Source of the DNA: Polynucleobacter necessarius
Lineage (GTDB): Bacteria; Pseudomonadota; Gammaproteobacteria; Burkholderiales; Burkholderiaceae
Assembly (NCBI RefSeq): GCF_900095195.1
Contig: NZ_LT606950.1
Coordinates: 1,161,946-1,193,945 of the forward strand
DNA length: 32,000 bases
Direction of reading: 5' to 3'
Part shown: in pieces, positions 590 through 1,414 of the stretch
How the letters are laid out: each line of letters begins with the position of its first letter
How positions within the stretch are numbered: the stretch's first letter is position 1
The notes under the pieces: generated by a model
Told to the model about the DNA's origin: nothing
Database searches by the model: none
Seen by the model: the letters and a program-made list of their open reading frames with translations, nothing else
Position numbers and translations under genes: made by a program

Positions 590-1414
590 CTATTTTTGGT
601 GGCTAATACGCGCAAATGCATGTGATTGCGAATAGATTCGAAGTTCTCCGCCTCGACCACAAAAACTGAATACGCTGATCTGCCTTGAGGTTGCCAGCGA
701 CGTCACGGACTAAATCCTCTACAAACTTTGGATTACTGTAGGAGTGCTCGGTAACCCATTTCTCATCCGGCCGATTGAGTAAACCCCAGAGTTCGCTAGA
801 AGCTTCGCTCTCTGCTGCGGCAACTAAATCTTCTACGGTCATTTGCGTTTTGGAATCTAACGTGACAGTCATGGTGACATGTGAGCGTTGGTTGTGAGCG
901 CCAAACTCAGAAATCTCTTTTGAGCAAAGGCAAAGACTCATTACTGGCACTTGCGCTCGCAAACCCAACTCTACTTCGGCACCACCGGAAGCATTTTGTT
1001 TGACATGCGCCATCCAAGTTACTTCGTAATCCATCAAACTTTCCACGCCTGAAACAGGGGCTGCTTTTTAACGAAGTGGGTATAGGTGAATTGAACATGA
1101 CCTTCCTTAGCATCTAACAAAGGAAGCATTTCTTTTGCTAAGGCAACTACCGTGGCGCTATCAACCGCCTGATCTTGTTTTTGCAGGAGCGCCATGAAAC
1201 GTGACATGTGCGTGCCCTTCACATGTGCAGTCCACCTTGGATGAGCGCGCATTGCCTATTGAGCAAGTCGGTATTCGTGGTGTGCGTCATCCGTTAATTA
1301 TTCGTAGCGCAACCGGTAACTTTCCATCGGTCGGTACATTTGAGATGGATGTCGCCCTACCTGCACATCTGGCATAGCGCTTGCTTTGAGAAAGGCGGGG
1401 TTCATGTCATTCAT
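590..1414 (-). pseudogene. folE2: GTP cyclohydrolase I type 2 (FolE2), disrupted by one internal inversion and three frameshifts
   Basis: FolE2-like peptides are spread over three minus-strand frames. They include [18 protein letters not shown] starting at 1414, [74 protein letters not shown] and [14 protein letters not shown]. One block lies on the plus strand (1231-1360: [24 protein letters not shown]...MDVALP). Frame changes are needed near 1065-1069, 661-665 and about 620-623. The reconstructed stop is at 590-592. Confidence 0.85.
1223..1368. other. 130-bp inverted segment (1231-1360) of folE2, bounded by perfect 8-bp inverted repeats ATGTGCAG (1223-1230) and CTGCACAT (1361-1368)
   Basis: The minus strand reads ...AMPDVQ down to 1361. 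The plus strand at 1231-1360 then encodes the next 43 FolE2 residues. The minus strand resumes at 1230 with (P)[11 protein letters not shown]. Flipping 1231-1360 restores one continuous frame across both junctions. Confidence 0.85.

Follow-up and report, generated by a model that had tools for sequence, protein, structure and literature searches.

A 130-bp inversion between 8-bp inverted repeats in the folE2 pseudogene of an endosymbiotic Polynucleobacter necessarius lineage

In folE2, the gene for GTP cyclohydrolase IB, of a Polynucleobacter necessarius genome, the segment 1231–1360 is an in-place, exact reverse complement of the ancestral gene sequence, bounded on both sides by perfect 8-bp inverted repeats. 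We assign a probability of about 0.85 to the reading that the 130-bp spacer between those repeats was inverted spontaneously, in a single event that became fixed in one P. necessarius lineage. P. necessarius is an obligate endosymbiont of Euplotes ciliates, with a genome of ~1.6 Mb that contains many pseudogenes; its free-living relatives have genomes of about 2–2.3 Mb (PMC5018217, PMC4285135). Throughout, the window denotes the whole stretch of DNA that was analyzed, that is, 32,000 nt of NZ_LT606950.1 (positions 1,161,946–1,193,945, forward strand), and plain coordinates refer to it. The comparative material was obtained from a scan of species-representative genomes, which yielded 80 orthologous loci, almost all of them from Polynucleobacter, and in each of these the genome scan found folE2 as an unbroken 825-bp gene flanked by dxs and tsaD; junction colinearity and arm statistics were derived from the 76 readable folE2 orthologues, and the lesions were read from an alignment of the window folE2 with seven orthologues. 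The elements on which the argument turns are the following.

590–1414, minus strand: folE2 (GTP cyclohydrolase IB) pseudogene, with its ATG at 1414–1412 and its ancestral stop at 592–590; matches PF02649 and NF010200.
1223–1230, no strand assigned: inverted-repeat arm ATGTGCAG, which on the gene strand is the CTGCACAT of Pro-Ala-His-Val.
1231–1360, plus strand: inverted 130-bp spacer, encoding FolE2 residues 19–61 and the first base of Pro62; located by minus-strand blastn HSPs.
1361–1368, no strand assigned: inverted-repeat arm CTGCACAT, which on the gene strand is the ATGTGCAG of Asp-Val-Gln.
1440–3341, minus strand: dxs, intact and directly upstream of folE2; its 633-aa product is 100% identical to WP_114663563.1 (P. 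necessarius).

Read unflipped on the minus strand from 1414, the gene gives 18 FolE2 residues and then 20 that make no sense before it reaches a stop, the inversion having turned 43 codons into antisense and ended translation after 38 residues. An earlier note, made from the letters of the window alone, had proposed that 1231–1360 is inverted inside folE2 and that an alignment with the folE2 genes of relatives would reveal a strand switch at this place, and both expectations are borne out: in blastn comparisons with 10 orthologous loci the gene resolves into three HSPs in plus, minus, plus orientation, the switch falling exactly at window 1368–1223, with the HSPs overlapping within the inverted-repeat arms and the minus-strand HSPs, found in all the orthologues tested, spanning 144–149 nt at 80–84% identity (E 1e-33 to 1e-42). 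Compared with five free-living loci, 1223–1368 is the sole strand switch in window 1–10.5 kb. The 44-residue translation of the plus strand, taken by itself, matches PF02649 with E 8.4e-5 and 22.6 bits, slightly under the 25-bit cut-off, in agreement with the proposal that this strand encodes FolE2. Once the segment has been flipped and the frame repaired, the restored protein matches PF02649 with E 7.3e-78 over model positions 1–257 of 260, and scores 236.8 bits against the NCBIfam equivalog NF010200 "GTP cyclohydrolase FolE2", for which the cut-off is 215.

Flipping 1231–1360 joins the three pieces of folE2 in one frame across both junctions, and the restored gene is colinear over both of them with 75 of the 76 readable orthologues; no base has been lost or gained at the breakpoints, and the restored alignment is without a gap at either junction. 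As had been claimed, the two arms are exact reverse complements of one another at all 8 positions; the complementarity stops there on either side. It is likewise correct that they belong to the native coding sequence, reading as the Asp-Val-Gln and Pro-Ala-His-Val codons. The further claim that the flip restores a single frame stands locally, over both junctions; beyond them the frame is lost again at about 1065–1069, at 661–665, and at 620/621. These and other changes, listed below, make folE2 in the window a pseudogene of the FolE2 family, carrying the inversion, three 1-bp deletions, and the changes of Cys-Pro-Cys to CLC and of SIHNH to SIRNH.

1065–1069, minus strand: frameshift 1, A6 to A5 on the gene strand; common to the sister lineage, L081 having the same T5 run.
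928–930, minus strand: Pro to Leu in the invariant Cys-Pro-Cys (CCT to CTT); window-specific, with CCT in all orthologues and in L081.
661–665, minus strand: frameshift 2, a window-specific 1-bp deletion; TCTTTT, the ancestral form, changed first to TTTTTT, which the sister lineage retains, and then to TTTTT.
628–630, minus strand: His to Arg in the invariant ESIHNH (CAC to CGC); common to the sister lineage.
620–621, minus strand: frameshift 3, a window-specific 1-bp deletion; CACAGTGC became CACATGC on the gene strand.

The sister lineage referred to here is represented by two independent assemblies, L081 (Logan assembly SRR32119647) and L082 (Logan assembly SRR8208349), which were found by way of the Dxs protein P0001, itself 99% identical to the Dxs of the window, and which differ from the window by 0.77% over 6.2 kb of flanking genes. 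The left-junction 28-mer (window 1217–1244) and the right-junction 26-mer (1347–1372) are present as exact matches in both L081 and L082, and because both junctions recur in this way in two independent assemblies, the 130-bp inversion predates the split of the strains and is no assembly error; it is a real, inherited mutation. A search of the JGI metagenomes with the codon-degenerate inverted junction returned 0 matches, so that the inversion is not seen there among free-living Polynucleobacter; the symbiont lineage itself seems to be absent from that collection. As a side observation, the Dxs of the window and P0001 differ at seven amino acids, several of the differences being non-conservative (H/N, K/E, D/G, P/S, P/Q), in keeping with the raised level of non-synonymous change that a symbiont is expected to show.

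Comparison with the sister strain allows the lesions of folE2 to be sorted by age. The window and the sister share the 130-bp inversion, the A6 to A5 frameshift, the His to Arg change, and the TCT to TTT change. Confined to the window are two 1-bp deletions, the Pro to Leu change, and a Lys to Asn change that alters LKRP to LNRP at a position otherwise invariant in the orthologue alignment, and confined to the sister are a large inversion, a 7-bp deletion of the ribosome-binding region, and four small deletions. The 7-bp deletion (AATAGAG), at L081:6915–6925 as compared with window 1415–1432, deletes the conserved purine-rich sequence that lies immediately upstream of the folE2 start codon. 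Since the split, folE2 has thus gained 7 small indels, 2 of them in the window and 5 in the sister strain (4 coding and the 7-bp upstream deletion), and 11 substitutions; the neighboring genes, over 6,228 bp, have gained 48 substitutions and 0 indels.

This chronology bears on a rival account in which the A6 to A5 frameshift had already killed the gene and the inversion was added only later, as a secondary scar; to this account we give an evenly balanced chance. The A-run deletion at 1065–1069 is, after all, also common to the sister lineage, and homopolymer slippage is in general far commoner than inversion. Against a late date stands the count of disabling lesions: at least 8 have arisen since the window and the sister separated, 2 of them in the window and 6 in the sister, and as just two predate the split, the gene had been dead only briefly at that time, and either of the two may have come first. 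For the first inactivating hit, the inversion and the A-run frameshift would accordingly appear to stand at roughly even odds.

The arms themselves are unexceptional as substrates. The window contains 314 pairs of 8-bp inverted repeats at 20–500 bp spacing, where about 235 are expected, and the restored folE2 contains 7 distinct 8-bp inverted-repeat pairs (8 overlapping 8-mer matches). An 8-bp repeat is therefore an ordinary substrate, and the signal lies in its exact coincidence with both breakpoints, which for given breakpoints has a probability of ~4^-8. Orthologues mostly have CTGCGCAT at the arm 1223–1230 and ATGTGCAA or ACGTGCAA at the arm 1361–1368, and the match between the arms hinges on third-codon-position bases, namely CAG for Gln, found in 24/76 orthologues, and GCA for Ala, found in 5/76. 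The degree to which the corresponding arms match across the 76 orthologues is distributed as follows.

3 of 8 positions matching: 1 of 76 orthologues.
4 of 8 positions matching: 13 of 76 orthologues.
5 of 8 positions matching: 25 of 76 orthologues.
6 of 8 positions matching: 31 of 76 orthologues.
7 of 8 positions matching: 4 of 76 orthologues.
8 of 8 positions matching: 2 of 76 orthologues (L019 and L036, intact genes with synonymous variants).

In the nearest relatives the arms match at 5–7 of 8 positions, the nearest intact relative being ~83% identical, and two intact orthologues already have the full match. The perfect arms of the window may thus be read in two ways, either as the outcome of a prior synonymous change or as having been made identical by the inversion event itself. 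A closer outgroup was sought in L088, the N-terminus of which is identical in protein, and was rejected on account of a DNA identity of only ~78% and an IS interruption: in this ENA metagenome contig of a free-living-type Polynucleobacter, folE2 (L088:5001–5238) runs after residue 38 into a PF13808 transposase-associated match at the contig end, a break that is probably either an IS insertion or an assembly join.

The sister strains hold a second rearrangement around the first. Relative to the window, ~700 bp (window 671/675 to 1372/1376, corresponding to L081:6961–7656) are inverted in both L081 and L082, with these two ends.

671–675, no strand assigned: TACGC, one end of the ~700-bp inversion of the sister lineage; the inversion is present in L081 and L082 and absent from the window.
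1372–1376, no strand assigned: GCATA, the other end of the same inversion, 4 bp outside the 8-bp arm.

Since the window, the 130-bp segment aside, runs colinear with the outgroups, it is the sister that has the derived arrangement, and the most parsimonious history leads from an intact gene to the 130-bp inversion, the state preserved in the window, and from there to the ~700-bp inversion around it in the sister. Between its two ends, the large inversion has only the 2-bp motifs TA and GC in common, which lie inside an imperfect 5-bp repeat (TATGC versus TACGC), and its junctions are non-reciprocal, TATGC and TACGC both having become TACGC. A single reciprocal crossover was considered as the origin of the ~700-bp inversion and rejected, as the TACGC version is found at both junctions.

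With regard to the molecular mechanism of the 130-bp inversion, an illegitimate, recombinase-independent event at a short repeat is the most likely explanation, and within this class template switching appears only moderately favored over reciprocal break-and-join. Under template switching, the nascent strand would hop to the opposite strand at one arm during replication, copy the spacer backwards, and then hop back at the other arm, a process that would also render the two arms identical. By our own derivation, a two-hop copying model that starts from ancestral arms matching at 7/8 positions, with CAG present, yields the observed arms, and a reciprocal crossover does not. The preference for copying comes from the arms of the relatives, which are mostly imperfect, and from the non-reciprocal junctions of the sister inversion. 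The published dimensions count against it: the reported template-switch spacer inversions in yeast coding genes had arms of >9 bp and spacers of 2–5 bp (PMC8604942), as compared with the 8-bp arms and the 130-bp spacer in folE2. A hairpin intermediate is not favored, the predicted fold of 1213–1378 as single-stranded DNA being no more stable than that of shuffled sequences (z = -1.2), and this too speaks against template switching.

The competing mechanism is a reciprocal break-and-join, through illegitimate recombination or double-strand-break repair, between perfect 8-bp repeats that already existed, with no copying involved, and we regard it as possible but doubtful. The precise junctions, at which nothing was lost or gained, suit such an exchange, substrates in the form of 8-bp inverted repeats are abundant, and L019 and L036 demonstrate that a perfect 8/8 repeat can arise in intact genes as synonymous variants. 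It would nevertheless have needed both rare synonymous states, CAG and GCA, beforehand, and the junctions of the sister inversion are impossible to obtain from a single reciprocal exchange. In the symbiont, folE2 would no longer have been needed, so that the inversion would not have been purged, and further frameshifts and damaging substitutions would then have accumulated in the gene.

The two remaining alternatives fare far worse. That the segment might be a programmed invertible element, a phase-variation switch turning folE2 off and on, is highly improbable: it does have in its favor that inverted repeats enclose a segment near the 5' end of the gene and that close strains show two different inversions within the same 825 bp, but the arms are just 8 bp long, depend on third-codon-position variants, and are perfect in only 2/76 orthologues; the gene, when flipped back, retains three frameshifts and changes at conserved residues, so that no orientation is functional; the spacer is inverted relative to its own flanks in all three assemblies, that is, in the window, L081, and L082, although a minority orientation may exist within a population; and the second inversion uses only 2-bp microhomologies. 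Neither was a recombinase found among the genes of the window. Searches with Pfam and NCBIfam profiles, together with the gene calls of L081, revealed no recombinase or invertase among the window ORFs searched, two small ORFs (18818–19299) matching no family, and the ORFs that could be assigned to a family represent housekeeping genes or what is left of genes (homoserine kinase, UvrD, ValRS, AlaRS, GlnRS, TctAB, and others); the gene calls of the orthologous L081 locus served to identify dxs, ispA, xseB, polA, and tsaD. The earlier note had argued for a spontaneous inversion mediated by a short inverted repeat or microhomology and against a programmed switch, observing that no invertase gene is nearby, and the exact strand switch, together with the lack of any Pfam recombinase match among the window ORFs, supports it on both counts. 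Equally remote is an artefact introduced into the deposited genome by assembly or finishing, named at the outset as the main risk, for which nothing speaks except the general possibility, and which is excluded by the identical junction 28-mer and 26-mer in two sister-strain assemblies from other runs, ~1% diverged from the window, and is further opposed by a repeat of 8 bp being far under the k-mer ambiguity of any assembler.

A spontaneous inversion of this kind can be compared with several known systems. Small inversions of tens to hundreds of bp between short inverted repeats are familiar from plastid genomes, where they are recurrent and prone to homoplasy and mostly concern the non-coding loops of stable hairpins; the folE2 case likewise represents a short-repeat flip in a reduced, asexual genome, but the segment is coding and its fold is not unusually stable. 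In Escherichia coli, Schofield, Agbunag, and Miller (Genetics, 1992) reportedly described rare spontaneous inversions, selected in the laboratory, with ends in short inverted repeats of 12–23 bp; the endpoints in folE2 also lie in short inverted repeats, although the arms measure 8 bp and the inversion was fixed in nature. With Hin/Gin/Fim-type invertons the segment shares its bounding by inverted repeats and an orientation opposite to that of the relatives, and it differs from them in lacking a recombinase, in its short and unconserved arms, in having no functional orientation, and in that no flipping was found among the assemblies. The template-switch model for quasipalindromes (the Ripley model, PMC8604942) agrees with folE2 in several respects, with short arms exactly at both ends, a spacer that is reverse-complemented without loss or gain, arms that are perfect after the event and mostly imperfect in relatives, and no need for a recombinase; the yeast coding-gene cases (PMC8604942) differ in their spacers of 2–5 bp, as against 130 bp, and in being multi-nucleotide substitutions in a working gene, as against a tolerated knock-out in folE2. 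In organelles, "U-turn-like" replication inversions, with junctions of very short microhomology, are ascribed to replication errors (PMC4417113), and they resemble the second inversion of the sister strain with its 2-bp TA and GC; they are mostly transient rearranged molecules detected by deep sequencing, whereas the balanced inversion in folE2 has both junctions fixed in the chromosome.

A further comparison is with the decay of pseudogenes in recently established endosymbionts such as P. necessarius (PMC5018217, PMC4285135), where, as with folE2, a pseudogene hit several times stands beside housekeeping genes that are intact, deletions are specific to a lineage, and another symbiont has lost the gene in parallel. 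Among other P. necessarius genomes, LT606949 and LT615227 (L085 and L086) have an intact 275-residue FolE2, and LT606948.1 (L087:3990–4870) has lost folE2 independently, through a change of ATG to ACG and a 1-bp insertion with a stop near residue 45, in a gene that retains the ancestral orientation and is without the inversion. That folE2 was lost in parallel, each time through other lesions, suggests that selection on this gene is relaxed in symbionts. Where folE2 departs from the usual picture is in the type of lesion, since descriptions of endosymbiont pseudogenes usually name frameshifts, stops, deletions, or IS insertions, and an in-place micro-inversion is rarely recognized because annotation reports only "fragments"; in-place micro-inversions are therefore probably under-counted among pseudogenizing mutations.

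Other parts of the window show erosion of their own. At 29605–31715, on the minus strand, lie the remnants of a liv branched-chain amino-acid ABC transporter operon, in which the periplasmic binding protein is in fragments and the last third of one permease is fused in frame to the start of a frameshifted ATPase. No inverted gene pieces were found in the liv region 29500–32000, where the six-frame Pfam matches occur on one strand only, and since all the pieces are on one strand, the decay there is by deletion and frameshift, not inversion. In the gap between a ZIP/ZupT-like gene and polA (7452–7492), a ~0.9-kb gene of free-living relatives is absent (for example L001:3059–3955, a 298-aa ORF). 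Between the nucleotidyl-transferase gene and alaS, the stretch 18771–19095 is covered only by two overlapping ORFs (18818–19147 and 18994–19299) with no Pfam or NCBIfam match, and it may be another gene remnant. Relative to window 4735–6511, the sister (L081:3055–3618) has three deletions of about 790, 260, and 160 bp, which take most of a Rieske-type oxygenase gene and part of a rhodanese gene, both of them open frames in the window. Even between strains as close as these, gene erosion is still in progress.

A more far-reaching suggestion, which we consider improbable, is that this endosymbiont lineage may undergo micro-inversion unusually often at inverted repeats that are very short, or at microhomologies, for instance because functions that keep template switching in check have been lost or weakened. 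It arises because a single 825-bp pseudogene holds two independent, nested inversions and about 8 small indels. One inversion occurred before, and the other after, a split of ~0.8% divergence, and their breakpoints are 4 bp apart at one end, a proximity for which we roughly estimate a chance of about 5%. Were the suggestion true, micro-inversion would be a way of inactivating genes that has been overlooked in studies of how genomes shrink, and the site may be a local fragile spot.

The inversion in folE2 is an unusually clear case of an ordinary mutational mechanism, and neither a new mechanism nor a new system. Its value lies in being a clean, natural short-inverted-repeat inversion at base-pair resolution, for which the ancestral state is given by 75 relatives and the inheritance by a sister strain, while the second, nested inversion yields a dated series of lesions. 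As such, folE2 offers a concrete locus at which to measure what range of spontaneous rearrangements a young endosymbiont undergoes.
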